Notes: a model not told the origin generated them from the letters alone. A stretch of DNA of 32,000 bases from an uncultured Erysipelotrichaceae bacterium (GCA_942493105.1 OW818668.1:510001-542000), one strand, 5' to 3'. Shown: positions 12,153 through 30,071, numbered from the stretch's first letter. Made by a program: numbers and translations.

Positions 12153-12163
12153 AGATTCCTCCA

Positions 12164-14469: not shown

Positions 14470-17400
14470 TTAAGAAGTCTCAAATAGATTAAATTCCTCC
14501 TTATTTCGTTCTGAAAAATGCTCTCTTTCGTGCGAAATTCTTGCATGTAATTGACTTAATAAATTAATTGCATATTCGTGAATTTTTGAATTTCTACTTT
14601 CAACAATATATTGAACTAGTGGAATTCGAGATGTTAATACGTCAGGTAATGTTTGATCCCAACTTCTTGGATATATCCGATCAATTAAGTTTTTGATTAT
14701 TTCTAGATTCGAAGTATTTTCAGCCTTTGAAATATAGAGTAACCCAAGATTTGTCCACGAACATTTTCCTTTGTCAATATCGTTGAATGGCAAGACGTAC
14801 TTCAATAGCAATTCATAACTATTATTCGTTTGTACCCACTTGACTAGAATCTCATCATCGATAAATGAAAGTGGACCTTGATGAAATCCATAAAACCCAG
14901 TTAAGAAATCATTTAGAAAATGACCTGAGTTTTCTGTATCATACCGGATAAATATATCAAGAAATTCTATTGGATAGTTCCTTATTATTGGCTCAAAAAC
15001 TTGATTTAAGTCACTAAACGATATGTACTCAACTTTTAAACAACTGTATAGTTTTTCGAAAATTTTTCTGGCTTGAACTTCATATTTATTTGAACCAAAA
15101 GTAGCTTTCGAGACAATTGAAAATTCATAGTTGATATGAGTATTCTTTGAAAATCGACTATCAAAGCGGTATCTCGATATAGAATCAGCTGATAAATCCA
15201 TTAATCTATCGTCAAATTTCGCCTTACTAATCGAAACACTTATAATGCTTATTTGAAGTTCAATTCCTTCATTAGTGTTTGGTACAAATTGAAAGATATC
15301 TATCATCTCTTCGATAGTTAGATCAACTAAAGTGTAGGCCAAATTCTTGAACTGTTTTAAAGATGTAGAGTCACCAACAAGTCCAGTTTTAATGAGTTGA
15401 ATAATATCACAATCAATTCTCACTGAAGATAAAAGATCTGGAAACATTCTTTTGGTTTTATCACTTGATAAAACCATTTGCATCGCTTCCTTTACTGTTT
15501 TCTTATCATCGATTTTTCCGCTTATCATACCTTTTAGCAACATAGGAGTGTTAGTATAATCTGAATTCGAGATATACTCAAAGACAGTATTAAAAAGTAA
15601 ATCAAATGGAATATCTGAACAAACAAGTCCCCTTCCAAAATATATCATTCGATAATTGTCTGACTCAAGTAACATAGAAAGATGTCTCTGAAAAAGTGTG
15701 AAATCCTTCGCAAACTGTTGGCCAATAGAAAATGCTTTCTCATCTATGTGTCTCTCATTTATATCCAAATCATCTTCTGAAATATAAACTCTTCTAGAGT
15801 TTGAAATATATACATTAAATTCATCGATTAAGTTATTTGGTTTTGTTTGTTCAGCCAAGCATTTAAGTCTCAAACGAATTGACTCTGGAATGTCTTTACC
15901 ACCAAAATGAAGAGTCTCTAAAACACTAATCCAGATTTCTGGCCAAGTTTCAGTTGTAATAACATTATTGATAATATTCTCTAGATGTCCCAACATTCCC
16001 AATTCCGTTAGTCCGGTAAAGTTATTTGATATTGTTTGTTTAAAATCACCTCTCAAATAATTATTTTCAATTTTTGATTGACAATAATCAAGAACTTTCT
16101 GGTACCAAGTTAATTGATCACCATATGTTTTTGGTTGATATCCATAGTCACGTTTCATTGCACCGAAATCAAAATTGTATCCATAAAAACTCGATGTTTT
16201 TAACATTTCATTAACTAGATGTAAACCAAAATCTGTCCGATTTGAATCGTCAGAAACAACTATTTCCTCTACAGCCTTCAATCTTTGCTCAACTGTAGCA
16301 TATGTTCCTGATAAAAATAGATGAAATAGATTTTCTACTCTATCTCTAATAGAGTATGTGTTCTCATTCTTTCCCTCCGAACAAGCGAATCTGAGAAGCA
16401 TAGAGATAACATCACTAAATCCAACATCATCATATCCGAGGAAAATGAGAATGTTAACAAAAGTATTATAATTCTCATTTTTTCTAGAAAAGAATTCCGG
16501 ATTAGTAATCGTCCCGATTCTATCTTTAATGACATCTGGGATTACAAAGGTGAGATTATAAATGATTTCAATATAAGAAGAATCGATGTTTTCAAAATCA
16601 TCAAAATAACCACTTTTATTAATAATCTCTTTTGAAGTGTTTTTTGCCTCGGTTGATGAGTGAAGAAATTTAAGTCTTCTTGAAAACGACAAAAGAGTTC
16701 TCCTATTATGCAGAAATACTTTTACAACTTCATCAGACCTATTCGCTTTTAAACATTTAATGGCCAATGCGTTTGCGAGAGCATGTGGAAGAACTGCTCT
16801 CATATTTCGTCTTACTTGAATTAACTTCATATCAACTAACAAATTAACATTCTCATAAACGTCTCGTGGGGAAATTCCGGAGATATTCGATAATATTCCT
16901 AATTCATTCTCTATGTTAAATGAAAATAGAAGTGAACACGCTTCCGCGGTCCTGGATAAAGGAACATTCAAAATATTCTGATTCATGAATAATCTGTTGA
17001 GTATTTGACTGCTGTTTAGAACCCCAATTGTTTGACTCTCGTTAATATTTGATGCCAAATATTTGGCCATTCTAAAATTCCCCCCCGACATGGAAATGAG
17101 TGTTTCTAAATTCGCGGCATTAATGTTCCCGAAATTCGATTTTATAAACATCTCTATAGTGTGATCTGAAGAAACAGACATATAGTAATTTGTCGTATCA
17201 ACTAAATCATCTTCTTTTGCATCGAACTCTATAGTAAGTAATGAAACTAAACTATTTGGGCTCTTACAGAGGTCGGATAAAACTGTATGCATATTCTTCT
17301 CACAATTATCAACTACAAGAATAATACGTTTATTGAGTTTTAGTAAATATTGAATCATTGTGATTGGTTCAGGGGTTGGATTATTGCTCATATCACAGTA

Positions 17401-18207
17401 AATTAGTATGTTAGCATCTTGAAAATTATCACCTTCATTGTTTGAGAATAATGAAAAAGCAAATCTCGTTTTCCCAACCCCGGACAATCCAGCAAGCCTA
17501 ACTATAGTACTAGGTTTTGATAATAAAATTCGAATTTCACTCAATGCAGAAACAATATCTAACTTATCAGCATCATTATATGAGTCTCTATATAGGCAAG
17601 ACTTTTCATCAAAGACCCATTCCTTTTTGAAACTAGTATCAGAATTTGACCATTCAACAAATGATAGCCATCCTGTAACATTTAGTCCCGTCCGATTTTG
17701 AACCCAAATGCACAAAGAAGGATACTCATTTACCCAAGAAACAATTTTATTGCAATCATAAAATGCAAAGGAAATTTTGCTTTCAGGATCAATGTCTACT
17801 AGACTGCAGCCAATTGCATTTTCGCGCAATATTTGTTCACGATATGTTACATCTGATCTACTGCTTGCAATAATATATTCACCATTATTTTCACGTAAAT
17901 ACGTAAAAATTTCGCGAATTTTCCCATTAGGCTTTATTTCCTCTAAAATTTTCCTATAGGTCATGTTTGGAACCTTGACCTGGATAATAGTGTTTGGATT
18001 TGAAATATAATCTTCAAAATCAAAACTGTTAGTTGACTTAACCAATACATCGACACCACCATCTTTTGCATCCTGGTTTCCACCATAATATACAGATTTC
18101 GAATTTATACCATGTTTACTTAATGTTGCTTCGCATAGTAGACCGATTAAAATCCTCAGATCTTGATCTGATAAATTTTTTATTTCAGTTTTAGTAATTT
18201 CGAACAT
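14470..18207 (-). CDS. Large STAND-type NTPase with an N-terminal Mrr/PD-(D/E)xK-like nuclease domain and a roughly 800-aa helical C-terminal region (Avs/bacterial NLR-like)
   Basis: The N-terminus carries DAKDGGVDVLV...(22 aa)...IIQVKV, matching the Mrr_cat-style D-GG-h-D...Q-x-K pattern. Walker A is GLSGVGKT (aa 240-247, about 17467-17490). Walker B is RIILVVDNCE. The GxP-like element is SGGNFRMAKYLA. A long repeat-poor, helix-rich tail follows. A GAGGT RBS lies 8 nt upstream of the ATG at 18207. Confidence 0.7.
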   Translation of the reverse strand: MFEITKTEIKNLSDQDLRILIGLLCEATLSKHGINSKSVYYGGNQDAKDGGVDVLVKSTNSFDFEDYISNPNTIIQVKVPNMTYRKILEEIKPNGKIREIFTYLRENNGEYIIASSRSDVTYREQILRENAIGCSLVDIDPESKISFAFYDCNKIVSWVNEYPSLCIWVQNRTGLNVTGWLSFVEWSNSDTSFKKEWVFDEKSCLYRDSYNDADKLDIVSALSEIRILLSKPSTIVRLAGLSGVGKTRFAFSLFSNNEGDNFQDANILIYCDMSNNPTPEPITMIQYLLKLNKRIILVVDNCEKNMHTVLSDLCKSPNSLVSLLTIEFDAKEDDLVDTTNYYMSVSSDHTIEMFIKSNFGNINAANLETLISMSGGNFRMAKYLASNINESQTIGVLNSSQILNRLFMNQNILNVPLSRTAEACSLLFSFNIENELGILSNISGISPRDVYENVNLLVDMKLIQVRRNMRAVLPHALANALAIKCLKANRSDEVVKVFLHNRRTLLSFSRRLKFLHSSTEAKNTSKEIINKSGYFDDFENIDSSYIEIIYNLTFVIPDVIKDRIGTITNPEFFSRKNENYNTFVNILIFLGYDDVGFSDVISMLLRFACSEGKNENTYSIRDRVENLFHLFLSGTYATVEQRLKAVEEIVVSDDSNRTDFGLHLVNEMLKTSSFYGYNFDFGAMKRDYGYQPKTYGDQLTWYQKVLDYCQSKIENNYLRGDFKQTISNNFTGLTELGMLGHLENIINNVITTETWPEIWISVLETLHFGGKDIPESIRLRLKCLAEQTKPNNLIDEFNVYISNSRRVYISEDDLDINERHIDEKAFSIGQQFAKDFTLFQRHLSMLLESDNYRMIYFGRGLVCSDIPFDLLFNTVFEYISNSDYTNTPMLLKGMISGKIDDKKTVKEAMQMVLSSDKTKRMFPDLLSSVRIDCDIIQLIKTGLVGDSTSLKQFKNLAYTLVDLTIEEMIDIFQFVPNTNEGIELQISIISVSISKAKFDDRLMDLSADSISRYRFDSRFSKNTHINYEFSIVSKATFGSNKYEVQARKIFEKLYSCLKVEYISFSDLNQVFEPIIRNYPIEFLDIFIRYDTENSGHFLNDFLTGFYGFHQGPLSFIDDEILVKWVQTNNSYELLLKYVLPFNDIDKGKCSWTNLGLLYISKAENTSNLEIIKNLIDRIYPRSWDQTLPDVLTSRIPLVQYIVESRNSKIHEYAINLLSQLHARISHEREHFSERNKEEFNLFETS

Positions 18208-18747: not shown

Positions 18748-20430
18748 ATGCCCACCATGTATCCTGATTTTCTTCCTAAACCACTAGAAGAGTACTTAAG
18801 GGGAGAAGCTAAAGTGTTCGAAGCTTTTAGAAACCAGCTTAGTAAAGACTGGATTGTTTATCATTGTGTGAACTGGCATATTCCTTCAGATAAACACAAT
18901 AGACAACGAGATGCTGAAACCGACTTTATCTTAACCCATCCACAATATGGAATCTTAGTGATTGAAGTTAAAGGCGGCGTTCAAATTAGATATGTTGCTG
19001 AACATAATCAATGGTTGAGTACAGACTATCATCTTAAAGTTCACGAGATCAATGATCCTTACCTACAAGCCAAACAAAACAAATACAATGTAATCAATGA
19101 ATTGCTTAAAATTCCTGAATTGAGTTTCTATGATAAACAAAGTTTAGATAATAAAATTAGTATAGGATATGCTGTCATCTTTCCAGATGTGACCATTGTG
19201 AATGGATCTTTACCTGTAGAAGCAGCTACCGAAATTACTTTGACCAGTAATCACTTAAGTCACATTGAGGAAATATTGATTTCTTTATGTACTTATTATG
19301 CTTGTGGGAAACAACACAGTACTGCTTTAGCTTTTCAAGCTCACTTGGGTTTAAAGAATCTATTGGCTCCTTCCTTTACCATTGAAAGAACACTGACAAC
19401 TTGGTTTGAAGATGAAGAGAGAAGAATCATTGAGCTTACAGATGAACAATATAACTTGCTGAATTATATAAGACTTGTCAAGAAAGCCAGTATCTATGGT
19501 TGTGCTGGTAGTGGAAAAACGTTGATTGCGATTCGTAAATCAGAATTGTTAAGTCAAGAGAATCAAGGTGTCTTGTTGGTATGCTTCAACAACATCCTTG
19601 GTAAACACTTAGAACATCACTTTAGAAAAGATGAGAATGTCGTTGCAGGATCTTTTTATAATATCCTTTGTCAAGAGTTGAAACTACCCATGACCTATGA
19701 TAACGATGCCCTACTTAAAACCAAGATCCTTGAAGATCATCCTGGTTACTTTGATGCGATCATCATTGATGAAGCTCAAGACTTCTCATCATCTCAACTT
19801 GAGATCATCAAACTATTGCTTAAACAAGATGGCTTGCTTTATTACTTCTGGGATGATAATCAACAAGTCATGAAAAGAGACATCAATGTTGAGTTTGATA
19901 AAGATGCTTTCCCACTGATCTTATCCACCAATCACAGAAATACAGCCAAGATATTTGAAGCAGTTAAACAACATTTCCACAAAGACATAGACATCACTCA
20001 TAAAGGGGTGGAAGGTCGTAATGTTGAGGTTTTAGAACCTTATAAACACAAGAATGCGACAGTATTGTTTGTTCGTCTTAGAGAGATTCTAGATCGCTTG
20101 ATTGATGTTGAAAAGATCAATCCAAAAGACATTGTTATCTTAACTTTCAAGTCTAAAACAAAATCACATTTGATTGATTTTAGTTGTGTATATCCAATTT
20201 GTCTCTTCAGTGATGAAGCTCAACCAAATGGGGTAAGAATTGATACAGTGCGTCGTTTTAAAGGCATGGAATCAAAAGTAGTTATCGTTACTGAAATGGA
20301 TGATGAGCGAAGCTTAAAGGATCCAATGATGTTTGAAGATATGTGTTATGTATCTTTCTCAAGAGCTGTTCATCACTTGATTATCTTGCCTCCGGATAAT
20401 GCTGAACTCTTTTTATCTCAATCAAAATGA
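18748..20430 (+). CDS. NERD-domain nuclease fused to a UvrD/AAA_30-type SF1 helicase
   Basis: The NERD core is DAETDFILTHPQYGILVIEVKGG. The helicase Walker A is GCAGSGKT and motif II is AIIIDEAQDF. The C-terminal motif is VDTVRRFKGMESKVVIV, followed by CYVSFSRA. No SD sequence is present. TATAAT (18736-18741) ends 6 nt before the ATG. Confidence 0.8.
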   Translation: MPTMYPDFLPKPLEEYLRGEAKVFEAFRNQLSKDWIVYHCVNWHIPSDKHNRQRDAETDFILTHPQYGILVIEVKGGVQIRYVAEHNQWLSTDYHLKVHEINDPYLQAKQNKYNVINELLKIPELSFYDKQSLDNKISIGYAVIFPDVTIVNGSLPVEAATEITLTSNHLSHIEEILISLCTYYACGKQHSTALAFQAHLGLKNLLAPSFTIERTLTTWFEDEERRIIELTDEQYNLLNYIRLVKKASIYGCAGSGKTLIAIRKSELLSQENQGVLLVCFNNILGKHLEHHFRKDENVVAGSFYNILCQELKLPMTYDNDALLKTKILEDHPGYFDAIIIDEAQDFSSSQLEIIKLLLKQDGLLYYFWDDNQQVMKRDINVEFDKDAFPLILSTNHRNTAKIFEAVKQHFHKDIDITHKGVEGRNVEVLEPYKHKNATVLFVRLREILDRLIDVEKINPKDIVILTFKSKTKSHLIDFSCVYPICLFSDEAQPNGVRIDTVRRFKGMESKVVIVTEMDDERSLKDPMMFEDMCYVSFSRAVHHLIILPPDNAELFLSQSK

Positions 20431-20473
20431 TTATAGACACTTTATACCCAGGTAATTATTGTAAAATGTAAAT

Positions 20474-23047
20474 ATGAACCAGCATTTTGATTATATTGAT
20501 CAAGTTCTAGGCAAATACAATTATTCTCGTATCGAAACTTTTTACTATTATCCTCAAGATAAACAAATAGTTTCACTATTTTATGATTCTTCTGATACTT
20601 GTATAATCATCGATATCAATATATGTGATCAAAGGAATCCAATTTTCAACTACGAATTCTACACACAAAGACAAAACGAATATATGGCTCAATATTCACG
20701 CTGCTTTAGAATAGTTTATGATGAGAATCTTGAGCGTAAAGTAGATGAACTTTTAAATAACAATAAAGTTTTAGAGTTCTCTAAAGACTCCTATAGTCAA
20801 AGAGATACCCAATATATTGATAACTCCGCTTTGGAATCCGAATTTGAGAATCGTTTTATTGATGTTTATGGTACTGAAGCTTTGGAATTTCTATATAAGG
20901 AGTTTGGATTCTTAGATTTTGAAGGAAAACAGACTTTCTTAGATTTTGTCTTGAATACAGAAAATGGTTATGTTGCTATCGAAGAAAACGGTGTAGGTTT
21001 TCATCATCCGCAACTTATTGGTTTGGAAAAATACCAGAAACAACTTGATAAACAGAATGCATTTTGTTATTTCGGGTATAAGCTGTTCAGATTTTCTTCT
21101 ATGGATTGTGTTAACCGGGACAAAATTAACGATAATATTCGACACTATTTCGGTGATATATCCAAGTTTAAGAAAAAAGAATATGTCATGGGTACACGTG
21201 ATGTTGAACTATATGATCACCAAAAACTGACATTATCCAAGATCATAGAAGACAGAAAAAACGGGAAGTATAATTTCCTCGTTGTGTTTCCAACTGCCGC
21301 AGGAAAATCGAAAATCATTGAAGAAGATCTGAGTAGTCTTCTTGTACTCAACCCAAAATTGAAAGTTTGCATCGTAGCACCGAATAAACCCATTGTTGAA
21401 GATTGGAAGGAAAGAGTTCATAAAGTTCTGCAATCTCTGAAAATGAATCTGAGTGTTGGAGAAGGTATTGAAAATCAAATCATTTGTGCTTCATATTATG
21501 CACTATGGAATAATGCTTATACAATACGTCCAGATTTCTTTGATTACATTGTTATTGATGAGGCCCATCATGCTGCCGCACCGATGATGAGAAGAGCACT
21601 TCAATACTTCACACCAAAATATCTTGTTGGTCTTTCAGCAACACCTGAGAGGATGGACCTACAACAGATAAGCACCATTTTTGGTGAGTACCAAACTCCA
21701 TTAACTATTGAAGAAGCTATGAAAACAGGTGTCATTTCCAAAGCAAGAGCTTATCGTATAAACACTAATTTAGATTTATCTGAAGTTCGCTTCAATGGAA
21801 AGTCATTCAATAATTCCGATCTTGAGAAAACGATTCGTGTTAAGTCCAGAAATGAATTAATTGCGGATGTTATTGAAAGATATTTTACAGAGGGTGAATA
21901 TGGGAAGTTACAGGGCATTATTTTCTGTACGAGCATTGCACATACTGAAGAAATGGAAAAAATCATGAATAGACGTGGCATTCCAACTCTAGCAGCCCAT
22001 TCCTCTAAAAGAGAAGATCCTATAAAACAATATTCAGAAAAGAAAATCCGTTTTTTAGCCAGTTGTGCTCTTATTTCTGAAGGATGGGACAGTCCTCAAA
22101 CCAGCATCGTTGTTATGGCTAGACCAACCTTATCAAAAGCTCTCTACCTGCAACAGGTTGGTCGAGGTTTTAGAAGATATCCAGGTAAAGAAGCTCTTTA
22201 TGTTATCGATGTTGTGGATCAGTATGGATCATTGGCTATCCCTTGGTCAATCAACGCTATATTTCACAACCCCAATTATGTTCCATTTGGCGATCCATCT
22301 AAACAACCACATCTTGGAGATATGATTACTGTAAATGGTATTCAAGAAAAGATTCTAAGTATTCAAGAAATCAATATCAACACATTCGAGAAATCATATG
22401 GAGACATGTTGAGTAGTGAACAAGCCGCTAGAGAACTTTATACTGGAACAAACACGCTTATCAATTGGGTTAAAAATGGAACAATCAAAGCCGATCTCGT
22501 TATCCCCTTCGGTTCTTCGAAACTTTACTTCTTCAAACCGGATTCTATTAAAACGATTCGTGATCTAAAGAATCTTGGTGTTCATGATGATTCAACACTC
22601 TTTACTGACTTTTTTGAGTTTATTAAAGACAAAAAATTTAGCTTCTCATTCAAGATAATATTCATGTTGGCATTAATGAAAAACATTGACGTTAATGGTG
22701 AAGCTATGCTTGATAATGTAAGGAAATTGTATGTTCAGTTCTATCTTGACCGAATTGAAAAGGGTCTTAAAGTTGATCGAGATAATTGTATTTATACCAA
22801 GGAATATCTAAGTAATGAAAAGATCGTTGATAATAGTATTCTATCTAATCCATTTGAGAAATTTGAACGCAAACGATTTGTCTTTTACAGCAAAGATCTT
22901 TCACGCATATCATTTAATCAGACACTTTGGCTACAACTAAAAGAAAGCCATTTTATTGAGATTGAAAAAATAATGGTTAACCACCTGATAGAATATTATA
23001 GAGATATGGATGGGGTACAAGATATCCCATACCTTAGGAGATTTTAA
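20474..23047 (+). CDS. Multidomain SF2 (ResIII/DEAH) helicase with an N-terminal Vsr/DUF559-like endonuclease-fold region, a C-terminal MerR/excisionase-like HTH and an uncharacterised tail
   Basis: The nuclease-like region spans aa ~120-225 (ESEFENRFIDVYG...FLDFVL...YVAIEENGVGFH...YKLFRFSS). Helicase motif I is FPTAAGKS, motif II is VIDEAHH, motif III is LSATPER and motif VI is QQVGRGFRR. The HTH-like segment is LSSEQAARELYTGTNTLINWVKNGTIKA. The tail of about 150 aa is unassigned. Confidence 0.8.
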   Translation: MNQHFDYIDQVLGKYNYSRIETFYYYPQDKQIVSLFYDSSDTCIIIDINICDQRNPIFNYEFYTQRQNEYMAQYSRCFRIVYDENLERKVDELLNNNKVLEFSKDSYSQRDTQYIDNSALESEFENRFIDVYGTEALEFLYKEFGFLDFEGKQTFLDFVLNTENGYVAIEENGVGFHHPQLIGLEKYQKQLDKQNAFCYFGYKLFRFSSMDCVNRDKINDNIRHYFGDISKFKKKEYVMGTRDVELYDHQKLTLSKIIEDRKNGKYNFLVVFPTAAGKSKIIEEDLSSLLVLNPKLKVCIVAPNKPIVEDWKERVHKVLQSLKMNLSVGEGIENQIICASYYALWNNAYTIRPDFFDYIVIDEAHHAAAPMMRRALQYFTPKYLVGLSATPERMDLQQISTIFGEYQTPLTIEEAMKTGVISKARAYRINTNLDLSEVRFNGKSFNNSDLEKTIRVKSRNELIADVIERYFTEGEYGKLQGIIFCTSIAHTEEMEKIMNRRGIPTLAAHSSKREDPIKQYSEKKIRFLASCALISEGWDSPQTSIVVMARPTLSKALYLQQVGRGFRRYPGKEALYVIDVVDQYGSLAIPWSINAIFHNPNYVPFGDPSKQPHLGDMITVNGIQEKILSIQEININTFEKSYGDMLSSEQAARELYTGTNTLINWVKNGTIKADLVIPFGSSKLYFFKPDSIKTIRDLKNLGVHDDSTLFTDFFEFIKDKKFSFSFKIIFMLALMKNIDVNGEAMLDNVRKLYVQFYLDRIEKGLKVDRDNCIYTKEYLSNEKIVDNSILSNPFEKFERKRFVFYSKDLSRISFNQTLWLQLKESHFIEIEKIMVNHLIEYYRDMDGVQDIPYLRRF

Positions 23048-23647
23048 ATGAGTTACAAATATTACGATGATCATGCTGAAGAATACTACGAGAGTTCTTT
23101 CAATGCCAACATGAGTGAAACGATGGAAAGATTCTTGCACTATGTCCCAAAGGGTGCCACCATTCTTGATGCTGGTTCTGGTACAGGCAGAGACACAAAG
23201 ACCTTGCTTGATCTTGGCTATACCGTAAAGGCATTTGATGCTTCTATAGAAATGGTAAAGATGAGCGCTCTATATACGGGAATTGAAACTCTACACGCAA
23301 AGTTTGAAGAGATTGAATATTGTGATGAATTTGATGGGATATGGGCTTGCGCATCTTTGTTGCATGTTGATAGGCACAGCCTTGATCATGTTTTCTTTTT
23401 GCTTAAAAAGGCACTCAAGAAAGATGGGATTCTATATTGTTCTTTCAAATCCCGGGAAAAAGACTACATAAAGGATGGACGTCATTTCACTTGTTTTACT
23501 AATGAGAATCTCGCTAAATATTTGGAAGGAATTAATCAGTTTTCGATAATCGAAATTTGGGATTCCAGGGATGTTAGGGAGGATCGAAAAAGTGAAGTCT
23601 GGGTTAATTGTATTCTCAAGAATGGATCACAAGTTACTAAAAAGTAG
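23048..23647 (+). CDS. Small class-I SAM-dependent methyltransferase (Methyltransf_11/25-like; not a recognisable DNA methyltransferase)
   Basis: Motif I is ILDAGSGTGRDT, followed by the acidic loop FDAS and post-motif GIWACASLLHV. There is no (D/N/S)PP(Y/F/W) motif, no PCQ/ENV motif and no target-recognition domain. The ATG directly abuts the helicase TAA (taaATG), and an AGGAG RBS lies 7 nt upstream inside the helicase gene. Confidence 0.8.
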   Translation: MSYKYYDDHAEEYYESSFNANMSETMERFLHYVPKGATILDAGSGTGRDTKTLLDLGYTVKAFDASIEMVKMSALYTGIETLHAKFEEIEYCDEFDGIWACASLLHVDRHSLDHVFFLLKKALKKDGILYCSFKSREKDYIKDGRHFTCFTNENLAKYLEGINQFSIIEIWDSRDVREDRKSEVWVNCILKNGSQVTKK

Positions 23648-23862: not shown

Positions 23863-26826
23863 CTATTTTTTATATTGATGTCCCACTCTAGTGAATGGTG
23901 ATAGGTTAATATAGAGTGTATTGACATCACCTTTTTCCCATTGGCGTTTTTCTAATGTTTTGAACAAATCTTCCTGTCGAGGTTGACCCAAGGTGAGCCG
24001 ATACAATGACAAAACATTAATTAATCGGTCATATTTGATTTTATCTTGACTATATGGGTACATAGGAACAATTCTTTCGATCTTGACCGAGAATGGGAAA
24101 TTCTCGGGTAAACACCAGTATGGAACCAAGTCCGAATTATTTCCCTTCAATTCAATAGAAGCCTTAGCAAGCATTTCTTCCCAGACGTTTTTATGGAAAT
24201 CCATTTTACCAAAATTGCTGTTGGCAATATTTTGTCGTATAGCATGACACATATATCTGTTGATGCGCCCTTCGCGCTGTTCCAAATCAACAGGGTTGGA
24301 TGGGAGGTTCCAGTGCATGATTTTTCGGCTATAGCTATGAAAATCAAGACCTTCTTGACCTATTGAAGTGGTGGCCAGCACGAAAGGTCTAAACGGAGAG
24401 TTAAAAGCGGTCCTGATGTTTTCAGTTCGCTGAATGGTTACTTCACTGATGGTCGCATTGAAATAGCCAGTCGCAAAATGGGTGCGCATGTTGACTTGTG
24501 ACTTGTTTTGCTCGAATTGTTCTCTAGTCTTGATCTGTAGTTGGACAGTATTTATAAAAGCCCCTTTCATGGAGTTGAGCAATTGCTCATCCTTTTCTCC
24601 TAGGACATAAGCGTATTCATCCAATACTGCTTGAAGATTGCCCTCAGCACAATAGCTGAATACATTCTCGTAATAAAACTCATCTTTTGTCTCATATATA
24701 AGATCGATGATGGCAATTGACTCAGGTTTATTGAATAAGGACACAAAACTTGCAGCTAGGTTTGAAGCATATACTTCATTCTTGAAAATTCTCAATGCAC
24801 ATACTGCAGGGGAACCGATCGCCATAGTTGCTAAGGTTTCAGCTGCATTTGATGTGATGGTTAGAAGTTTGTCTGTTGAAGGCTTTCCATCCAAAATTTT
24901 CAGAAGTTCAATCAACTGGGTTGCCCCACCGCGTCCTGCCATGATGTTGTGTTGTTCTGCGATCAGATCAATTTTTAGTTGAATGATCTGTGTCAATTCT
25001 CTTTTAAGTTGAGACAATGGCTTATCTTTGTGATCAAGTGGGGCATAGAGACTAGCCAAATATTGTGAGGCATATTTAACCAGATCTTCAGTCTCTCCCT
25101 TAAGTCTTGCCGTAATTGCGCGTCTTATTTCACTAGCGAAGTATTTTGTGTCGATATTTCCAGTTTTCTGATTGAGCTTACCAACGGTTCTTCTTTCAGC
25201 TTCATAGGAAGTGAGAACAGCAATCATGCGGGGAACCATTTCCCAACTTGAAAACACCAGTAATTTTGAATAATCTTTGTTTTGGTGGAAGTAGCCTTTT
25301 GTTTGATAGTAAGGTAAAGACGCGGGAATCCATAGTAAAAGTTCAGGTCCGCCTTTATCCAAAGGGAACACTTCCTGGAAGAGCATGTCTAGACGCGCAT
25401 TGTTGGTAGGAATGAGTTTATAGTTATTGATCCTATTCTTTCTGATTAGAGCGGTTTCTGCTTTTTGAAGCTGAGTGTAATTTCCACTCTTTTTTAAAGC
25501 ATCAACAACTTTCTCATTGACCTTATATTTCCCCATAATCGATAAGAGATAGGGGGAGGATTTTACATATTCGATTGGAAAGTTTCCAAGTTCCAAACTT
25601 ATCATGAGTTGTTGCATTTGAATGTAAGAATGGATGTCTTCAGGCGTTATCGACATCTCCTTTACTTTAGAAGTGTCGATCATCGCATTATTCATTCTTT
25701 CGGTTCGACATACGTTTCTGTAAAGTTCATCCTCAGCCTTTTTTTTCTGTACAATCAGAACTGTGATGTCATCGGATTTCAACTCTCCTAAAACAGCCGA
25801 ATAACTACTCCATACTTGGTGGAAATACTCCTTCTTTGTTTTGGTAAATAACAGGAAATCCATTACGTCGATGAACTCTTTATAGTGTTCTGTCTCACCA
25901 TTGGATAATTCCTCTATGGTTGTGTAGGGTTTATACGGGGTTGCTGATAAGAGCAATACTTTAGTGTTCTCATTGAAGAGAAAACGGTTTGAAAACATAG
26001 ATCTTTCGTTGCTTTGAACAGCATTCTGGTTGTTATGGTCAGCTATTAGATCTTTGAAGCGCTGGAACTCATCCATGATGATAAGATCAGGCTCCAATTT
26101 TTCCAAACTGATTTGAGCAAAAAGCTGTCTCAGTTCAGTGATGATTTTTGAGCGCTCTGACTTTTTCACCGCAAAAACATCGGTCAATTGTACAATGGAG
26201 AGAATCTTTTGGTACAGTGTGTCCGTCATTTTTTTATTAAGCGCCGTTATCATGTCGTTGATGTAGGATCCGTGTTTATTGTCACATAAGGTCACTTGCT
26301 TTTCATACCATTGTATATTGGATTCCCAATATTTCATGTTTTCTAAGTGTTGTAAAAGATCATTTAACTTGCTCGAGTATAAACCTAAATCCCTGAACCG
26401 GACCAAAAAAACGTAAAGCAATGCCCTTTCCCAATAAGTTCCTTCGCCATTTTTCATAAAAGATGTGGCTGGAGTTAGTGGTATCAATTGGCGTGTGTTG
26501 TTTTTCTCGCCGGCCTTCTGATATATTTTAAGATGGAGCATAGATAAACGACTTTCGGCGATATTTATACAATCATTCTCATCCACACCAAGTTTGCGAA
26601 AATTCTGATTAGCGATGTTCATATTCGAACAGACATAGATAATCCTAAACATAGGGTCTTTCATCTCGGTATGCCAATCATAAACTTTACGCACAACTTC
26701 TCTTGCAATGATTGTTTTCCCCAAGCCGACCTCGTCGGCTAATAGGACACGATTTTGATGATCATCTCTGTAAATCTGCAAAATCCGGTCCGCTGTCGCA
26801 ATCTGAAAATCCTTAGCATTTATCAT
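23863..26826 (-). CDS. SNF2-like SF2 helicase/ATPase
   Basis: Motif I is LADEVGLGKT, motif II is LIIMDEFQRF, motif III is LLLSATPYKP, motif V is TTSIGQEGLDFH and motif VI is LEQREGRINRY. The start overlaps the upstream PLD gene's stop by 4 nt (ATGA). Confidence 0.8.
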   Translation of the reverse strand: MINAKDFQIATADRILQIYRDDHQNRVLLADEVGLGKTIIAREVVRKVYDWHTEMKDPMFRIIYVCSNMNIANQNFRKLGVDENDCINIAESRLSMLHLKIYQKAGEKNNTRQLIPLTPATSFMKNGEGTYWERALLYVFLVRFRDLGLYSSKLNDLLQHLENMKYWESNIQWYEKQVTLCDNKHGSYINDMITALNKKMTDTLYQKILSIVQLTDVFAVKKSERSKIITELRQLFAQISLEKLEPDLIIMDEFQRFKDLIADHNNQNAVQSNERSMFSNRFLFNENTKVLLLSATPYKPYTTIEELSNGETEHYKEFIDVMDFLLFTKTKKEYFHQVWSSYSAVLGELKSDDITVLIVQKKKAEDELYRNVCRTERMNNAMIDTSKVKEMSITPEDIHSYIQMQQLMISLELGNFPIEYVKSSPYLLSIMGKYKVNEKVVDALKKSGNYTQLQKAETALIRKNRINNYKLIPTNNARLDMLFQEVFPLDKGGPELLLWIPASLPYYQTKGYFHQNKDYSKLLVFSSWEMVPRMIAVLTSYEAERRTVGKLNQKTGNIDTKYFASEIRRAITARLKGETEDLVKYASQYLASLYAPLDHKDKPLSQLKRELTQIIQLKIDLIAEQHNIMAGRGGATQLIELLKILDGKPSTDKLLTITSNAAETLATMAIGSPAVCALRIFKNEVYASNLAASFVSLFNKPESIAIIDLIYETKDEFYYENVFSYCAEGNLQAVLDEYAYVLGEKDEQLLNSMKGAFINTVQLQIKTREQFEQNKSQVNMRTHFATGYFNATISEVTIQRTENIRTAFNSPFRPFVLATTSIGQEGLDFHSYSRKIMHWNLPSNPVDLEQREGRINRYMCHAIRQNIANSNFGKMDFHKNVWEEMLAKASIELKGNNSDLVPYWCLPENFPFSVKIERIVPMYPYSQDKIKYDRLINVLSLYRLTLGQPRQEDLFKTLEKRQWEKGDVNTLYINLSPFTRVGHQYKK

Positions 26827-28562
26827 AGTTTAACCTTCTTGGCAGCAGTTTTGAACATTTCCAACATGACTCTTAATTCTGTTGTTGCGACTTCCGGATC
26901 CAAACGGTTCATTACTTCTTCAATCTCTGATATTTTCTTGGGATCAGTGACCACCGACTTCAATAATCGTTCATACAAAGCAGAGGGAATCATATCTTGC
27001 TTCTGTTCCCCTGTTAGAAATTGTCTCTCAAAATAGATTTGCTGTTCCAACGAGACTTCTGCATAATTGTCAGCCAGCATAAAAGTTACATAAGCAAGGA
27101 AACCACCTTTATCTTGGATAACTGATTTGTAAATCATGTTGTCGCGTTCAAAGATGGGTATACCTTTTGTTTGAATTTTTATAACAGCAAAGTCCTGAAG
27201 ATGATTGATGACATAAAACTCCGATAAATCAACCAGTTTTAAACCGGAAATATTGGTTTCCCTTTCCAACTTGACAAAAGCATTAGGAGAAGTGATTGGT
27301 CTGATAAACACGGATTCAGAGGGCTTACTACAAATTACTTTAATTTGGTATCGATCCCCATCTGGAGAAACAATGGCTCCAGTAAAACTACGCAAGACGT
27401 CAATTAGCGGGGAACTGATTTCTTCAGATTCTGGATCAAGTTGCTGATCAAAAGATTCGAGTTTTTCAAATGGACAAGGTTCAGTCTGAAGCAAGTCTTT
27501 ACTCACTGTATAGAAACTTGTAACGCCAGATTTGAATTTTAACCCAACCATGAACTCTATGTTTCTATGAAAGGCATTTTCTGAGGCATTAAGGGAACCT
27601 AAATAAAGATAATTACCGCTGGCGGATCCTTTAAAGTAAATCTTGGCATGAATGTCTCGTCTTGAAGTTGCTTCCAGAACATCCTCTTCAAGAGCATCCA
27701 GATCAACCATACCATCTTTAACGATATACACTTCTTTGAATTGATCGAATATCTTTCTCGTGAGTGAACTCTTTCTAGTAATCAATATTTTATCCTTGGG
27801 TCGTTTAGTTATCCGATCTATAGTCCCTTCAGATAGGAAAGGGGAAATAACGATGAGACTGTTAGCATCAGCCAGCAGAGTTTCCGCCTTTACAGAATTC
27901 TTCAAACCAAAATGATGAAAACTGACTTTTTCAAATTGACCCAAGCCTTCAAAATTAGATACATTTAAAATTTCGTTTGCGAGAGTTCGAATTTTCTTGG
28001 CTTTGGTTGAACTTGCATGGTCTGCCACGAAATTCAACAATTCCGATAATGGATTATTATCATCATTTTTCTTAGCATTTTCCTCAGATGTTGGTCTACC
28101 CGTAAGTTCAACAGCAATGTCCAAACTACGATCGAAAGTGAGATTGCGACTCAAAGTAATAATTTTAATAAGTGAATTACCACTTTTGTTTACATATTTC
28201 AAAAACCAAATTTTGGGGTGGAAGTTGGTATCTTTACGCAGTTTTATTTCAAAGACGCTTTGCTCAAGTAAGGTGAATACTGAACGATATTCTTGAGGAA
28301 CTTTGATTGAACCAAGATTACAGAACACAGCGAGTCTATCGCTGCTTTTTCTAATAGCCTCAAGCAAAAAGAATGGGTTGTTTCGGTGAGTGCTGTCAAG
28401 ATCATCCATCATGCCCAATGAAATTGGTATACCAAGAAGTGCCTCTAAATCCAAAGAATAAGTAAGTCCTACCGCAAACTCTAGTTGGAATCCAGGATCT
28501 GGTTGTAATATATCCCCCATGTTTAGACGATTTATTTCCTGATGAAACAATGTGCTAGCCAT
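26823..28562 (-). CDS. Two-HKD phospholipase-D-family nuclease with an unassigned C-terminal half
   Basis: HKD motif 1 is FHPKIWFLKY...LSRNLT (H115, about 28218-28220). HKD motif 2 is IHAKIYFKG...LGSLNASENAF (H305, about 27648-27650). It overlaps the upstream gene by 8 nt. Confidence 0.85.
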   Translation of the reverse strand: MASTLFHQEINRLNMGDILQPDPGFQLEFAVGLTYSLDLEALLGIPISLGMMDDLDSTHRNNPFFLLEAIRKSSDRLAVFCNLGSIKVPQEYRSVFTLLEQSVFEIKLRKDTNFHPKIWFLKYVNKSGNSLIKIITLSRNLTFDRSLDIAVELTGRPTSEENAKKNDDNNPLSELLNFVADHASSTKAKKIRTLANEILNVSNFEGLGQFEKVSFHHFGLKNSVKAETLLADANSLIVISPFLSEGTIDRITKRPKDKILITRKSSLTRKIFDQFKEVYIVKDGMVDLDALEEDVLEATSRRDIHAKIYFKGSASGNYLYLGSLNASENAFHRNIEFMVGLKFKSGVTSFYTVSKDLLQTEPCPFEKLESFDQQLDPESEEISSPLIDVLRSFTGAIVSPDGDRYQIKVICSKPSESVFIRPITSPNAFVKLERETNISGLKLVDLSEFYVINHLQDFAVIKIQTKGIPIFERDNMIYKSVIQDKGGFLAYVTFMLADNYAEVSLEQQIYFERQFLTGEQKQDMIPSALYERLLKSVVTDPKKISEIEEVMNRLDPEVATTELRVMLEMFKTAAKKVKL

Positions 28563-29718
28563 GTTGATCCAATCCTTTTAAGATGTCCGTGACGATTGTT
28601 AAAACCGTCGGATACCGGTATGACAGTTTATAGTTGTGAATTGGATTTTTATATCGATTGTCGCTGCTGTTAGAAAGCTTTGCTCGATCACCTTTGATGA
28701 GTTTCTCTCGTCGAATAATTAACCTCTTAGCTTCCTCAAGATTGTTTGTTTTTATGTTTTCGTCGAATCTCCTTAGAAACTCCGAAGTTTGGCGTGAACA
28801 ATGAGTAATCCGTATCACAGCCTCGAGGTCAATAGACTGATAGTTCTGAAGCCATTGATCAAAGAGACTTACGATGTTTGAGTCTTTGCCTTCCGAGTAG
28901 ATGACATTGAATAGCAAATGTGCACCATAAATAAAGTTTGCAAAATCTTGAGCCAAGTGAACTAATCGACCCATCTCTTCTGGCAAGTCATTGGGGTTGA
29001 TGTTCTCAAAATTATTTGGTAATTGTTTTTTACTAAGAATATTTGACAAAAGTGTATCTTTGGTTTTTGGTGAGTTTACAATTTGCTGATAAAGAAAGTT
29101 TGCCTCTTCCTTGGTTAAATCAATCGAGGCATCATTCATGAAGTCATAATCTGGGGTTAAAGGAATAAACACTTCCAACCCATCATAACGACTATCTTTA
29201 TCATCAGCAGCATCTTCAGATGTTTCTAATTTTAAAGAAAGATCATGTGATCTCTTTCTTTTTAGTGTTATTAGTTGACATGTATCATCCAATGAAATGT
29301 CATTATTTGTAACGATCCCTAAAACTCTCAGTCCGTTCCAATAGGTGCCAGATGGTTTATACTTCACAGAACCACCCTCGTTTAGTTTACGAGCGCCGAT
29401 GATCCCACTGGTGCCTGCGACTGAATTCTTAACCAATGTTACTACAAGATCGTTCTCTCGATCTTCAATCCATTTTCTAACCTTACCACTTTCCACTCTC
29501 GAATCGGTTTTTGCCTTTTGAAAAAGATAAGGGATCAAGACGAAATATTTAGCTCTAGTATGCAAGGTTGATATACCAGGAAACATCAGATTAGAAAAAG
29601 CGTCCCTAATTGTACCAATCCCCAACTCATCGAGGGCAGTTTGGTTTCTTATATTTCTGAGTATATAAAGAATCTTGTTGCGTTCTTCTCTTGAATAATC
29701 GACCCATCCTAATTTCAT
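28555..29718 (-). CDS. Conserved hypothetical protein, DUF6361-like; first gene of the PLD/SNF2 operon
   Basis: From the ATG at 29718 the N-terminus reads MKLGWVDYSREERNKILYIL...LDELGIGTIRDAFSNLMFPGISTLHTRAKYFVLIPYLF. This matches my recollection of the DUF6361 lead motif, which I could not verify here. The ATG at 29718 follows AGGGGAG. The track's upstream ATG at 29754 has no RBS. Confidence 0.5.
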   Translation of the reverse strand: MKLGWVDYSREERNKILYILRNIRNQTALDELGIGTIRDAFSNLMFPGISTLHTRAKYFVLIPYLFQKAKTDSRVESGKVRKWIEDRENDLVVTLVKNSVAGTSGIIGARKLNEGGSVKYKPSGTYWNGLRVLGIVTNNDISLDDTCQLITLKRKRSHDLSLKLETSEDAADDKDSRYDGLEVFIPLTPDYDFMNDASIDLTKEEANFLYQQIVNSPKTKDTLLSNILSKKQLPNNFENINPNDLPEEMGRLVHLAQDFANFIYGAHLLFNVIYSEGKDSNIVSLFDQWLQNYQSIDLEAVIRITHCSRQTSEFLRRFDENIKTNNLEEAKRLIIRREKLIKGDRAKLSNSSDNRYKNPIHNYKLSYRYPTVLTIVTDILKGLDQHG

Positions 29719-30071
29719 GTGCTCCCCTTCATTAAAACCATCTCTAAAGACCATTATACTATTTGATTATGTCAATTTATTTTGTATAACAGGGAAATTC
29801 AACCTTGTAGCTTAAACTTTTGGAATTTATTAGATTTATAGGAGAGCAGTCACAGTACTATCATGCTGTAAGAAAATGTTAGATACCCTTATACATATAG
29901 TTTAGTCGTCTTTCGGTGGGTGAGTCAAATCTTATCTCTGATAGATTACAACAAAAGCTATCTATTTCATTAAGAAATATAATTCATATTGAGAGTTTAG
30001 TTTCACTAAACTGTTTATAATTGTTCAAATTTAACGAAACATTTTTCAAAAAATTGAGTTATTCAACCATG

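Follow-up and report, generated by a model that had tools for sequence, protein, structure and literature searches.

A nuclease-helicase gene and a small methyltransferase gene form an obligately linked pair that appears to be a new restriction-like defence module

In a 32,000-nucleotide stretch of DNA from an uncultured Erysipelotrichaceae bacterium (GCA_942493105.1 OW818668.1:510001-542000; here called the window), a gene for a large protein with a helicase core runs directly into a gene for a small SAM-dependent methyltransferase, which raises the question of whether the two belong together and, if they do, what kind of system they form. A sequence-only reading had described them as a translationally coupled pair that is not a restriction-modification (R-M) system. 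Both open reading frames, the contiguous TAA and ATG codons, and the AGGAG element inside the helicase gene were found exactly as claimed there (Table 1), with 7 nt between AGGAG and the methyltransferase ATG, and a junction sequence of ccttAGGAGattttaaATG. The candidate promoter matches the consensus at 9 of 12 positions, which is weak, and the number of such sites in the region is about that expected from shuffled sequence. Analysis with Pfam and PADLOC showed that the window contains a defence island.

Table 1. Positions in the window of the two genes, the domains of the large protein and the associated signals.
Feature	Position	Strand	Basis
Candidate sigma-70-like promoter TAGACA-17-TATTGT, in the 43-nt gap 5' of the helicase gene	20434..20462	+	Consensus scan
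Nuclease-helicase-HTH-tail gene, 857 aa, ATG start	20474..23047 (including stop)	+	ORF
N-terminal alpha/beta subdomain, aa 1-110	20474..20803	+	AF2 model, pLDDT >90
Probable diverged PD-(D/E)xK nuclease of REase_MTES_1575/DUF559 (Vsr-like) type, aa 111-240	20804..21193	+	hhalign, AF2
SF2 helicase/translocase core, aa 241-585: Walker A PTAAGKS, DEAH, motif VI QQVGRGFR	21194..22228	+	Pfam, PDB, PADLOC
Small beta-rich linker, aa 586-640	22229..22393	+	AF2 model m35760d9d2d83 (residues 32-41 of the fragment form strands); assigned to no family
MerR/excisionase-type winged HTH, aa 641-705	22394..22588	+	Foldseek, Pfam
Conserved 150-aa tail, aa 706-857	22589..23044	+	Family conservation; motifs FS(F/Y)K...L and invariant NPFEKxERKRF
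Methyltransferase Shine-Dalgarno AGGAG, inside the helicase ORF	23036..23040	+	Read from sequence
Abutting TAA (23045-23047) and ATG (23048-23050), translational coupling junction	23045..23050	+	Sequence
Class-I SAM-dependent methyltransferase gene, 199 aa, ATG start	23048..23647	+	ORF

The large protein has 993 homologues in which every domain is kept, with 323 confirmed places in species-representative genomes. Linkage was scored at 80 species-level loci, one of which was uninformative, and in 72 of the remaining 79 a small class-I methyltransferase gene lies directly adjacent to the helicase gene. The orthologous methyltransferase is present in 69 of the 80 loci (68 adjacent, and 2.2 kb off in L067), and four further loci carry a different class-I methyltransferase, of 207 aa, in the same coupled position. 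Adjacent pairs occur in at least four phyla, Bacillota, Actinomycetota (Coriobacteriia), Spirochaetota and Fusobacteriota, and in both gene orders, with the methyltransferase first in 49 and the helicase first in 20 of 69 two-gene loci. With few exceptions, the genes in these 69 are separated by -37 to +32 nt, and stop/start junctions like that of the window, with an overlap or short gap, recur in either order. Furthermore, the two proteins have co-diversified (Mantel r = 0.86, 0 of 999 permutations) and no third conserved gene was found, as the window neighbours do not recur and any one family accounts for at most 4 of the 147 flanking ORFs. The coupling of the two genes is far beyond chance and they are a co-inherited, translationally coupled and obligately linked unit, which confirms the co-occurrence that the sequence-only reading had set out for checking. 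That a housekeeping small-molecule methyltransferase lies by chance beside a stand-alone helicase-nuclease is extremely improbable. A homologue with 44% identity does stand alone in Sphaerochaeta, between genes for a transketolase and an ADP-ribosylglycohydrolase, and six of the 79 helicase loci have no adjacent methyltransferase; however, accidental adjacency is effectively refuted by the linkage over four phyla and two orders, the distribution of gaps with overlapping or abutting codons, and the Mantel correlation, and the flanks are otherwise unrelated.

The large protein is formed of five parts, an N-terminal subdomain, a probable PD-(D/E)xK nuclease, an SF2 motor, a winged HTH (wHTH) and a tail. 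The Vsr/DUF559-like nuclease, full SF2 core, MerR-like HTH and unassigned tail proposed previously were supported by hhalign, Foldseek and Pfam, and the motifs quoted for both proteins are present in the translations (FLDFVL, VAIEENGVGFHHPQ and FRFS in the helicase; ILDAGSGTGRD, FDAS and WACASLLHV in the methyltransferase). The N-terminal subdomain has no Pfam match and is the most variable part, with a mean pairwise identity of 0.48 compared with 0.63-0.75 in the other domains. The window protein itself also has no Pfam match in the nuclease region; the profile of its family aligned with homologue P0452 in hhalign (probability 97.6%, E = 4.6e-12) over a segment that corresponds to Pfam REase_MTES_1575 (E = 9e-7; score 29 bits, cutoff 38), and among family members one matched MTES_1575 (1.3e-4) and one DUF559 (0.065) directly. 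The AF2 model has an alpha-beta-beta-beta-alpha-beta topology, consistent with an MTES_1575/DUF559-type fold, and Foldseek against the PDB gave weak matches (E > 0.03), themed on PD-(D/E)xK nucleases. Invariant residues are E121, E125, E143, D157, E170-E171-N172-G173, H177-H178, K193-Q194-N195 and R206. However, the core reads E-E-N-G where MTES_1575 has E-V-D-G, so catalysis by the nuclease is not assured.

Pfam matches of the large protein were limited to aa 244-584 (ResIII, 1.6e-24; Helicase_C, 1.7e-10), and its PADLOC matches (mREase_IV, 1.6e-34; PbeA; REase_I) likewise cover only the helicase core. In NCBIfam the motor matched RadD and EcoAI-family HsdR (1.3e-24), both far under cutoff, and the best PDB match was 7clg_A (2.1e-28, core only, aa 254-594), which we take to be the SauUSI structure. 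On these matches the motor is predicted to be closest to SauUSI and to be a dsDNA translocase of the SauUSI/HsdR kind. The wHTH is basic (pI 8.0) and in Foldseek matched RacA, BldC, Xis and MerR-family DNA-binding domains (probability ~1, TM(target) 0.53-0.68, E ~0.1-0.5), with HTH_17 and MerR_1 detected by Pfam in 15 and 9 of 25 family members, respectively. The tail is mildly acidic and has no Pfam or NCBIfam match, and an AF2 model of the C-terminus (pLDDT 87) matched nothing in the PDB beyond the HTH. Mean pairwise identity in the HTH and tail is 0.63-0.65, equal to that of the catalytic domains, and a search with the tail returned 704 representatives at E <= 1e-3.

By its sequence, the methyltransferase is a class-I SAM enzyme with neither a target-recognition domain (TRD) nor room for one. 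The SAM motifs are intact (GxGxG, the acidic D64, and WACASLLH after strand 4), residues D41, G43, G45, G47, D49 and D64 are invariant in the family, and Pfam Methyltransf_25, Methyltransf_11 and Methyltransf_23 matched at 2e-10 to 4e-9, passing the cutoffs for Methyltransf_25 (41.5 bits, cutoff 27) and Methyltransf_11 (40.4 bits, cutoff 21.2). The absence of N6/N4 and C5 motifs held up, with no [DNS]PP[YFW], PC(Q) or ENV in the 199 aa. None of the 55 PDB relatives at E <= 1e-6 is a DNA methyltransferase; all are small-molecule or protein methyltransferases, protein N-terminal and lysine enzymes included. The resemblance to TehB, YcgJ and SmtA stood in part: the sequence relatives are TehB, PEAMT, GNMT and 3E23-type enzymes, but the TehB Pfam score is marginal (22.3 bits, cutoff 20.4) and no NCBIfam equivalog was reached (TehB 26.9 against 218; BchM 37.3 against 158.9). 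There is sub-threshold similarity to the carboxyl-O-methyltransferases BchM, BioC and CmoM. The closest solved relative is 3E23 (RPA2492; 4.6e-19 with the single sequence, 7e-35 with the family profile), reported elsewhere to be the nearest structural homologue of Trm9, which methylates a tRNA base and depends on a second protein (PMC4678810). In the main clade the enzyme is acidic (pI 4.6-6.1), with conserved basic and aromatic residues (R48, K134, R145, R177, R180, H106, W99, F147 and W185).

Neither member of the pair is confined to it. The methyltransferase family is also paired with PLD-helicase-tail proteins (L081, L083, L085) and with HNH proteins (L082, L087), in which the tail is not detectable, and it occurs as orphan copies (L086); P0383 is one candidate methyltransferase-helicase fusion. 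At five loci the helicase-nuclease has all motifs intact and no adjacent methyltransferase. The tail is homologous to the C-terminus of the methyltransferase-paired PLD-helicases (hhalign 88.6%, E = 2.7e-6) and, with or without the HTH, ends a GmrSD_N+GmrSD_C protein (P0478), whose locus has no methyltransferase within 5 kb, and a DUF262 protein from a viral metagenome (Foldseek, TM 0.62, E = 3.6e-8).

The five methyltransferase-less loci weaken the antitoxin-like role that had been suggested for the methyltransferase, and we consider it distinctly unlikely that it restrains the nuclease-helicase, by methylating it or as a SAM-sensing inhibitory subunit, with the nuclease freed by a phage SAM-degrading enzyme or by methyltransferase loss. 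Translational coupling suggests a fixed stoichiometry, and the co-diversification, the possible fusion and the protein N-terminal and lysine methyltransferases among the relatives would all fit. However, the family serves unrelated partners (MTES-helicase, PLD-helicase and HNH) and the non-orthologous 207-aa enzyme substitutes for it in one helicase subclade, both of which count against any specific substrate or interface on a protein, and the stand-alone copy lies in a metabolic context.

For a second model, helicase-nucleases that lack a methyltransferase would be harmless, in keeping with the five loci. Here the methyltransferase would act on a nucleotide or small anionic metabolite, perhaps one specific to a phage, and its product or a shift in SAM/SAH would be sensed by the tail and switch on the nuclease-translocase. 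Such a layout, a generator plus a sensor-effector, is that of other signalling defences, and the use of base-modified nucleotides as signals in immunity has a precedent (bioRxiv 10.1101/2024.12.20.629578). Every sequence test gave a small-molecule-type methyltransferase, its acidity and conserved basic/aromatic cluster suit an anionic ligand, the tail is conserved, mildly acidic and not hypervariable, unlike a DNA-specificity domain, and, as is typical for signalling, one generator would serve several nuclease effectors. We nevertheless regard this model as doubtful: the 199-aa enzyme has no infection-sensing domain, so activation must depend on a phage-supplied substrate, to which nothing points, the HNH partners have no detectable tail, and the tail is present in the GmrSD fusion with no methyltransferase nearby.

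The pair is not named by any model in PADLOC (2023; PADLOC-DB 2.0.0), Pfam or NCBIfam, and we found no publication on it in the literature, in agreement with the earlier view that it matches no named defence family. For the methyltransferase the sole PADLOC match was mad2 (4.5e-14), which extends over no more than the Rossmann core (positions 278-402 of the 492 in the profile). The MADS system has eight genes, and its MAD2 methylates adenine at N6 together with a specificity subunit (bioRxiv 10.1101/2023.03.30.534895); no other MADS gene is present with the pair. SauUSI has a homologous motor core and the same order of N-terminal nuclease, helicase and C-terminal accessory domain, and PLD-headed relatives of the window protein carry the tail of the latter. 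However, the SauUSI nuclease is PLD, while that of the window protein is probably an MTES_1575-type PD-(D/E)xK, with no PLDc_2 match, and DUF3427 forms the C-terminus of SauUSI, where the window protein has the wHTH and novel tail and no DUF3427 match. SauUSI, a modification-dependent enzyme, has no companion methylase, and Type IV enzymes are defined by the absence of a cognate methyltransferase (PMC3141236), from which the pair departs at the 72 adjacent loci. GmrSD/BrxU-type Type IV proteins (DUF262) share the tail, or HTH and tail, at the C-terminus, but their catalytic machinery is wholly unlike that of the window protein.

Elsewhere the neighbours of the pair include GmrSD (frequently), SauUSI-like, SBD-HNH, DarTG and Wadjet genes, and Type IV enzymes lie beside it repeatedly (SauUSI-like PLD-helicase-DUF3427 with NUDIX, GmrSD, SBD-HNH, SRA-HNH and EVE-HNH). 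This placement, the motor matches to 7clg and mREase_IV, and a conserved rather than hypervariable tail at the position of the SauUSI TRD, found also in GmrSD-type proteins, favour a large protein that is itself a modification-dependent restriction enzyme of the SauUSI or GmrSD sort, with the HTH and tail as reader and the methyltransferase as accessory. The latter might mask a triggering host modification or metabolite, or methylate a phage hypermodified base (for example at a carboxyl or amine side chain) for recognition, as the similarity to BchM, BioC, CmoM and the Trm9-like 3E23 would allow. We think this fairly unlikely, since the methyltransferase adjoins the helicase so regularly, the modified-base reader folds SRA, EVE, DUF3427 and SBD were not detected, and the pair has no linked modification pathway.

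An N-terminal nuclease followed by an SF2 motor and a DNA-binding module is the order of HsdR and Type ISP enzymes. Type ISP (LlaGI, LlaBIII), Type I HsdR and Type III Res resemble the pair in having an N-terminal PD-(D/E)xK nuclease, a probable one in the case of the pair, and an SF2 translocase joined to a methyltransferase, and the EcoAI-family HsdR and ResIII matches agree with this, although scores are well under family cutoffs (86.6 against 550 bits). They differ in that the methyltransferase here is separate, of Methyltransf_11/25 type and without NPPY/DPPY, there is no hypervariable TRD, and the flanks hold no S-subunit gene. The claim that the pair is not an R-M system is not established: its layout parallels Type ISP and Type I/III, partner swapping is typical of R-M, and an enzyme with a small-molecule-type fold may still act on nucleic acid, given the 3E23-Trm9 kinship (PMC4678810).

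Our preferred guess, a tentative one, is a split Type ISP/III-like R-M logic with a non-canonical methyltransferase. The large protein would bring the TRD-less methyltransferase to nucleic acid, much as Trm112 does with Trm9 and Bud23; the methyltransferase would mark host DNA, or a DNA modification that is already there, with a non-canonical methyl group; and the ATP-driven nuclease-translocase would load via the HTH and tail module and cut DNA without the mark. Trm9 and Bud23 are small class-I methyltransferases that need Trm112 as a platform to act on RNA. The Trm9-Trm112 and Bud23-Trm112 likeness, in that a small methyltransferase lacks a TRD and depends on a protein partner, is an analogy only, which runs via 3E23 and not via direct comparison with Trm9, and no Trm112-like partner lies beside the window methyltransferase.

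Several observations favour this split R-M logic, namely the tight linkage in both gene orders with co-diversification, the lack of a third conserved gene, the domain order, the candidate fusion, orphan methyltransferase copies like those of R-M systems, and the restriction-rich context of the window and other loci. The methyltransferase also swaps among MTES_1575-helicase, PLD-helicase and HNH partners, a pattern that a shared nucleic-acid substrate predicts, and partner-bound Methyltransf_11-type enzymes can modify nucleic acids (PMC4678810). However, the methyltransferase is acidic, has no N6/N4/C5 motif or TRD, and has small-molecule or protein enzymes as its PDB relatives, while the HTH and tail are conserved, with only aa 1-110 more variable and no hypervariable specificity domain. 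Likewise, the five methyltransferase-less loci would be lethal under strict R-M logic unless the enzyme sits elsewhere in the genome, SauUSI as the nearest characterised motor relative is modification-dependent with no companion methylase (PMC3141236), the tail is found in a Type IV-like fusion of GmrSD type that has no neighbouring methyltransferase, and the nuclease has EENG in place of E-V-D-G.

Because it is linked across phyla and located among restriction-type genes, the pair reads as a restriction-like module, one that is horizontally mobile and self-contained, and it looks like a restriction-like defence module that has not been described before.

The genes of the large protein (a helicase-nuclease) and the small protein (a methyltransferase) lie back to back on the forward strand, and translation and reading of the junction (ccttAGGAGattttaaATG) confirmed exactly the coordinates, abutting stop and start codons and AGGAG motif given in a sequence-only reading. 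AGGAG occupies 23036-23040, and the TAA stop of the large protein (23045-23047) is followed directly by the ATG of the methyltransferase (23048-23050). On GC content, Pfam and PADLOC results, the pair is situated within a low-GC stretch (about 0.32-0.36) that forms a defence island, with housekeeping genes to its left (FtsE- and FtsX-like proteins and a two-component system, translations judged by eye). The AbiEii gene and its overlapping DUF6577 neighbour, which holds the position where the AbiEi antitoxin is the expected partner, may form the left edge of this island. The 671-aa PLD-like protein matched no PADLOC model; it lies close to the PD-Lambda-4_A homologue, as does the WYL-WCX regulator, and could be either a PD-Lambda-4 partner of variant type or a gene of its own under WYL control. 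The NERD-UvrD helicase, ending 43 nt upstream of the large-protein gene, matches RTasNERD-Hel, which is normally a reverse transcriptase-associated helicase, and no reverse transcriptase was found among the Pfam-scanned window ORFs, which are part of all ORFs. A complete cluster of ZacA (DUF6361), ZacB and ZacC (SNF2-like helicase) is convergent to the methyltransferase gene. A promoter and terminator scan of the region gave site counts at shuffle expectation.

Coordinates of the pair, its neighbours and related modules (positions are those of the window unless a locus is named; L numbers are loci from the homologue scans and P numbers are homologous protein representatives)
Feature	Position	Strand	Evidence or remark
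AbiEii and DUF6577 protein	6338-8213	-	AbiEii nucleotidyltransferase toxin, 1.8e-22; DUF6577, 3e-40; the two overlap
WYL (WYL-WCX) regulator	11232-12164	-	domain call
PLD-like protein, 671 aa	12206-14221	+	RE_NgoFVII/PLDc_2, about 1e-6
PD-Lambda-4_A homologue	14470-18207	-	PADLOC, 3e-178
NERD-UvrD helicase	18748-20430	+	full-length PADLOC RTasNERD-Hel match, 5.7e-89
Large protein, 857 aa	20474-23047	+	ORF call
Methyltransferase, 199 aa	23048-23647	+	ORF call
ZacC, ZacB, ZacA	23863-29754	-	PADLOC, 1.5e-271, 1.6e-135 and 2.8e-91, respectively
207-aa replacement methyltransferase	L063, L066, L074, L079 (e.g. L063 4310-4933)		motif DLIIADLSLHYF
Methyltransferase and HNH modules	L082 4976-7048 (Heliobacillus); L087 3989-6117 (metagenomic contig)		
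SauUSI-like PLD-helicase-DUF3427 and adjacent NUDIX	L084 1211-4342 and 778-1206; L090 6453-9764		
S24-bearing tail relatives	P0391, P0396, P0401, P0385, P0378; L084 5001-8138		
GmrSD_N+GmrSD_C protein ending in the tail	P0478; L094 5001-7514		

We identified 993 homologues of the large protein, conserved across all of its domains. Scanning one genome per species gave 323 confirmed helicase places, from which 80 loci were retained in Lachnospiraceae, Erysipelotrichaceae, Coriobacteriia, Treponema, Sphaerochaeta, Fusobacteriaceae and others. In 69 of these the window methyltransferase has a same-strand orthologue, which is directly adjacent in 68 and 2.2 kb away in one (L067); the methyltransferase comes first in 49 and the helicase in 20, and the intergenic gap is almost always between -37 and +32 nt. 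Among the other 11 loci, four have a different 207-aa class-I methyltransferase with 23-24% identity to the usual enzyme, translationally coupled downstream of the helicase in the same position and belonging to one helicase subclade. L016 is at a contig edge and uninformative, leaving 79 informative loci, 72 of which have a directly adjacent methyltransferase; five loci hold a helicase-nuclease with every motif intact and no adjacent methyltransferase. Pairwise distances of the two proteins were strongly correlated (Mantel r = 0.86, 0/999 permutations). The profile searches and co-occurrence analysis proposed as a check in the sequence-only reading thus showed that the pair does co-occur, that its genetic coupling is obligate and that the two proteins co-diversify, and the alternative that their adjacency is accidental is effectively excluded. 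Hundreds of species from several phyla, mostly gut and rumen Bacillota, Coriobacteriia, spirochaetes and fusobacteria, share this conserved coupling.

A third component was also considered and rejected, since neither the NERD-UvrD helicase nor any other gene of the window recurs beside the pair in related loci, and in the flanks of 21 loci (147 ORFs) no Pfam family appeared more than four times. As the adjacency is meaningful and no flanking gene recurs, the unit is exactly two genes. Just one fusion remains, a methyltransferase-helicase-tail protein of 1081 aa seen in a single representative (P0383), which may itself stem from a frameshift; what looked like a fusion in L028 was produced by a run of N. 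There were no full-length plasmid matches. The single full-length 'phage' match (L088; GenBank MT836124.1, 'Bacteriophage sp.') contains GmrSD along with the methyltransferase and helicase, and its flanking genes encode a TRAP transporter and a subtilase; it is probably a bacterial contig labelled phage in error, and carriage by phages or plasmids was rejected.

Pfam matches in the large protein were confined to ResIII and Helicase_C (aa 244-584). The closest solved structure (7clg, listed as 'Putative helicase', which we take to be SauUSI; 2.1e-28) and the top PADLOC model (mREase_IV; 1.6e-34) likewise covered the motor core only. The N-terminus (aa 1-243; pLDDT 87.6, pTM 0.86) and C-terminus (aa 586-857; pLDDT 87.4) were modelled from the family alignment. 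In the N-terminal model an alpha/beta subdomain (aa 1-110) precedes an alpha-beta-beta-beta-alpha-beta domain (aa 119-226); for this model Foldseek gave only weak PDB matches (E > 0.03), mostly PD-(D/E)xK nucleases (CinB, Can2, R2 RLE, AF1548, MGME1, Bax1 and Cap4). Compared with these weak matches, a profile alignment is the decisive evidence for the predicted nuclease assignment: the family profile aligns to P0452, a homologue of lesser length, over its residues 9-131 (97.6% probability, E = 4.6e-12), and Pfam assigns residues 47-119 within this segment to REase_MTES_1575, a PD-(D/E)xK nuclease family. The 'Vsr/DUF559-like' call of the sequence-only reading is therefore probably correct at the level of fold family. 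However, the nuclease core is canonical AFEVDGIVWHAP in P0452 but an invariant AIEENGVGFHHP in the window family, and with its core altered in this way nuclease activity of the large protein cannot be assumed. The C-terminal model has a small beta linker and a MerR/excisionase-type winged HTH (wHTH), followed by a helical tail. Foldseek matched the wHTH to RacA, BldC and Xis structures in the PDB (probability about 1), and Pfam HTH_17 was found in 15 of 25 family members. The large protein is shown to combine three elements on a single chain: a domain of nuclease fold, an SF2 motor of dsDNA-translocase type and a basic wHTH.

The small protein is a class-I SAM methyltransferase, with Methyltransf_25/11/23 above the Pfam cutoff and intact SAM-binding motifs. 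Its sequence contains no [DNS]PP[YFW], PCQ or ENV motif, and a length of 199 aa leaves no room for a target-recognition domain (TRD), both as had been read from the sequence at the outset. At E <= 1e-6 the family profile matched 55 PDB sequences, led by the uncharacterised RPA2492 (3E23; 7e-35). The characterised relatives are TehB, phosphoethanolamine and glycine N-methyltransferases, cypemycin N-methyltransferase and UbiG, with no DNA or RNA methyltransferase among the 55, and all NCBIfam equivalogs scored far under cutoff. A DNA methyltransferase in disguise was rejected because the catalytic motifs are absent and the PDB relatives are small-molecule or protein methyltransferases. The enzymes are uniformly acidic, with a pI of 4.6-6.1 in the main clade, and 6.1 and 7.0 in the two divergent 207-aa enzymes, yet a group of basic and aromatic residues is conserved in them. 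As a caveat to the 'small-molecule' reading, 3E23 has been described as the nearest structural relative of Trm9, which is of the Methyltransf_11 type, methylates a modified base in tRNA and requires the partner protein Trm112 (PMC4678810).

Homologues of this methyltransferase (46-51% identity) are also coupled to 801-890-aa PLD-ResIII-Helicase_C proteins with a SauUSI-like head, with a 17-nt overlap in Caldicellulosiruptor and Caldicoprobacter and a 9-nt gap on a third contig (L085). For L081, the one PLD-helicase tested, hhalign shows homology between its C-terminus and the window tail (88.6%, E = 2.7e-6). In L082 and L087 the methyltransferase lies downstream of 341-342-aa HNH proteins (mutual identity 54%; weak HNH_4 matches, E = 0.007 and 1.3e-4) and is followed by a DUF4268 protein in L082 and an unassigned 166-aa protein with no DUF4268 match in L087. 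A stand-alone copy was found in a metabolic gene context in Sphaerochaeta. These pairings show that the methyltransferase swaps partners among three nuclease types. The HNH pairing may represent a second kind of methyltransferase-nuclease module, and that of Heliobacillus is clustered with EVE-HNH, NUDIX and SRA-HNH genes. Furthermore, the pair recurrently adjoins bona fide Type IV enzymes, with GmrSD in L085, L088 and three of the 21 loci of the flanking-ORF survey, and SBD-HNH in L084. These Type IV neighbours also include a SauUSI-like PLD-helicase-DUF3427 gene with an adjacent NUDIX gene, observed immediately beside the pair in two unrelated metagenomic contigs (L084 and L090).

The tail (aa 706-857) had no PDB match, searched within the HTH and tail model, and no Pfam match, and its candidacy as a sulfur-binding, SRA or DUF3427 reader was rejected as PDB, Pfam and hhalign gave no support. 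The tail profile matched 704 representatives at E <= 1e-3; a further homology search with this profile gave mainly gene fragments and little was gained. Within the 67 long tail-bearing representatives, Helicase_C was detected in 31 and ResIII in 27, a C-terminal Peptidase_S24 (LexA-like) domain after the tail in 13 (about one fifth), and GmrSD_N and GmrSD_C fused to the tail in two. The S24 domain suggests RecA- or DNA-damage-linked control in one subclade; the S24 variant locus examined (n=1) retains the methyltransferase, with a 4-nt overlap. Using Foldseek against viral predicted structures, the HTH and tail matched a DUF262 protein (E = 3.6e-8) and an 'AAA ATPase' (E = 9.4e-13), both from one metagenomic siphovirus contig (BFVD A0A8S5PWA5 and A0A8S5PWP8). 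Its presence in GmrSD-type, DUF262 and 'AAA ATPase' proteins makes the tail look like a wider module of restriction-type enzymes. A role as a dedicated methyltransferase dock is weakened, because the GmrSD-tail locus (L094) has no methyltransferase within 5 kb and the HNH partners in L082 and L087 have no detectable tail.

We tentatively favour, at less than even confidence, a logic of R-M kind, akin to that of a split Type ISP/III enzyme, on the strength of three R-M-typical features: the nuclease-motor-DNA-binding-methyltransferase layout, the swapping of partners and the occurrence of orphan copies. The large protein would deliver the methyltransferase, which would mark self nucleic acid, and we infer the mode by which methylation would control cutting. 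Against this stand the type and acidity of the methyltransferase, the lack of a hypervariable specificity domain (mean identity of the HTH and tail is 0.63-0.65, like the catalytic domains), the five motif-intact loci with no adjacent methyltransferase, and the Type IV affinities of the motor, tail and neighbourhood. The same points feed a signalling or metabolite model, which we consider unlikely, a Type IV enzyme with an accessory methyltransferase, improbable to a similar degree, and a regulator or SAM-sensor model, which is more improbable still. It is rather doubtful, but conceivable, that the methyltransferase acts on a nucleotide, metabolite or hypermodified base, possibly phage-supplied, and not on ordinary DNA bases, with the tail reading this methylation and licensing or blocking the SauUSI-like nuclease-motor. 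If true, small-molecule or side-chain methylation would be an immune logic common to helicase-, PLD- and HNH-type effectors.

Tested against the defining features of each named system considered, the pair fails in every case. Unlike SauUSI, the description of which stresses the absent companion methylase (PMC3141236), it has a methyltransferase and neither PLD nor DUF3427, and unlike Type I, III and ISP R-M it lacks a canonical DNA methyltransferase and has neither a TRD nor an S subunit. Matches to PADLOC 2.0 systems are confined to core domains. The sole PADLOC match of the methyltransferase, mad2, covers the Rossmann core only, and MAD2 of MADS is an N6-methyltransferase with a specificity (S) subunit (bioRxiv 10.1101/2023.03.30.534895). 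A known defence system was rejected, as PADLOC, Pfam and NCBIfam yield core-domain matches only. Likewise, no description of the pair was found in the full text of open-access papers and bioRxiv covering SauUSI, PLD-helicase or nuclease-helicase with methyltransferase, MTES_1575, TehB with restriction, MADS and RPA2492. What is known in the pair is a restriction-type nuclease-translocase plus a cognate methyltransferase; that its control logic is new is possible, if on the doubtful side.

To our knowledge, the well-characterised methylation-based defences (R-M types I-III, BREX, DISARM and MADS) all use canonical N6A, N4C or C5 DNA methyltransferases, whereas this pair couples a nuclease-translocase to a TRD-less methyltransferase of small-molecule type. 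The tail, present in GmrSD-type enzymes too, is an uncharacterised restriction-protein module, and the pair, self-contained and only 3.2 kb long, lends itself to direct testing by heterologous expression. If the methyltransferase marks DNA, this would mean a new DNA modification or a new mode of methyltransferase targeting, and if it does not, a new control logic for restriction enzymes.
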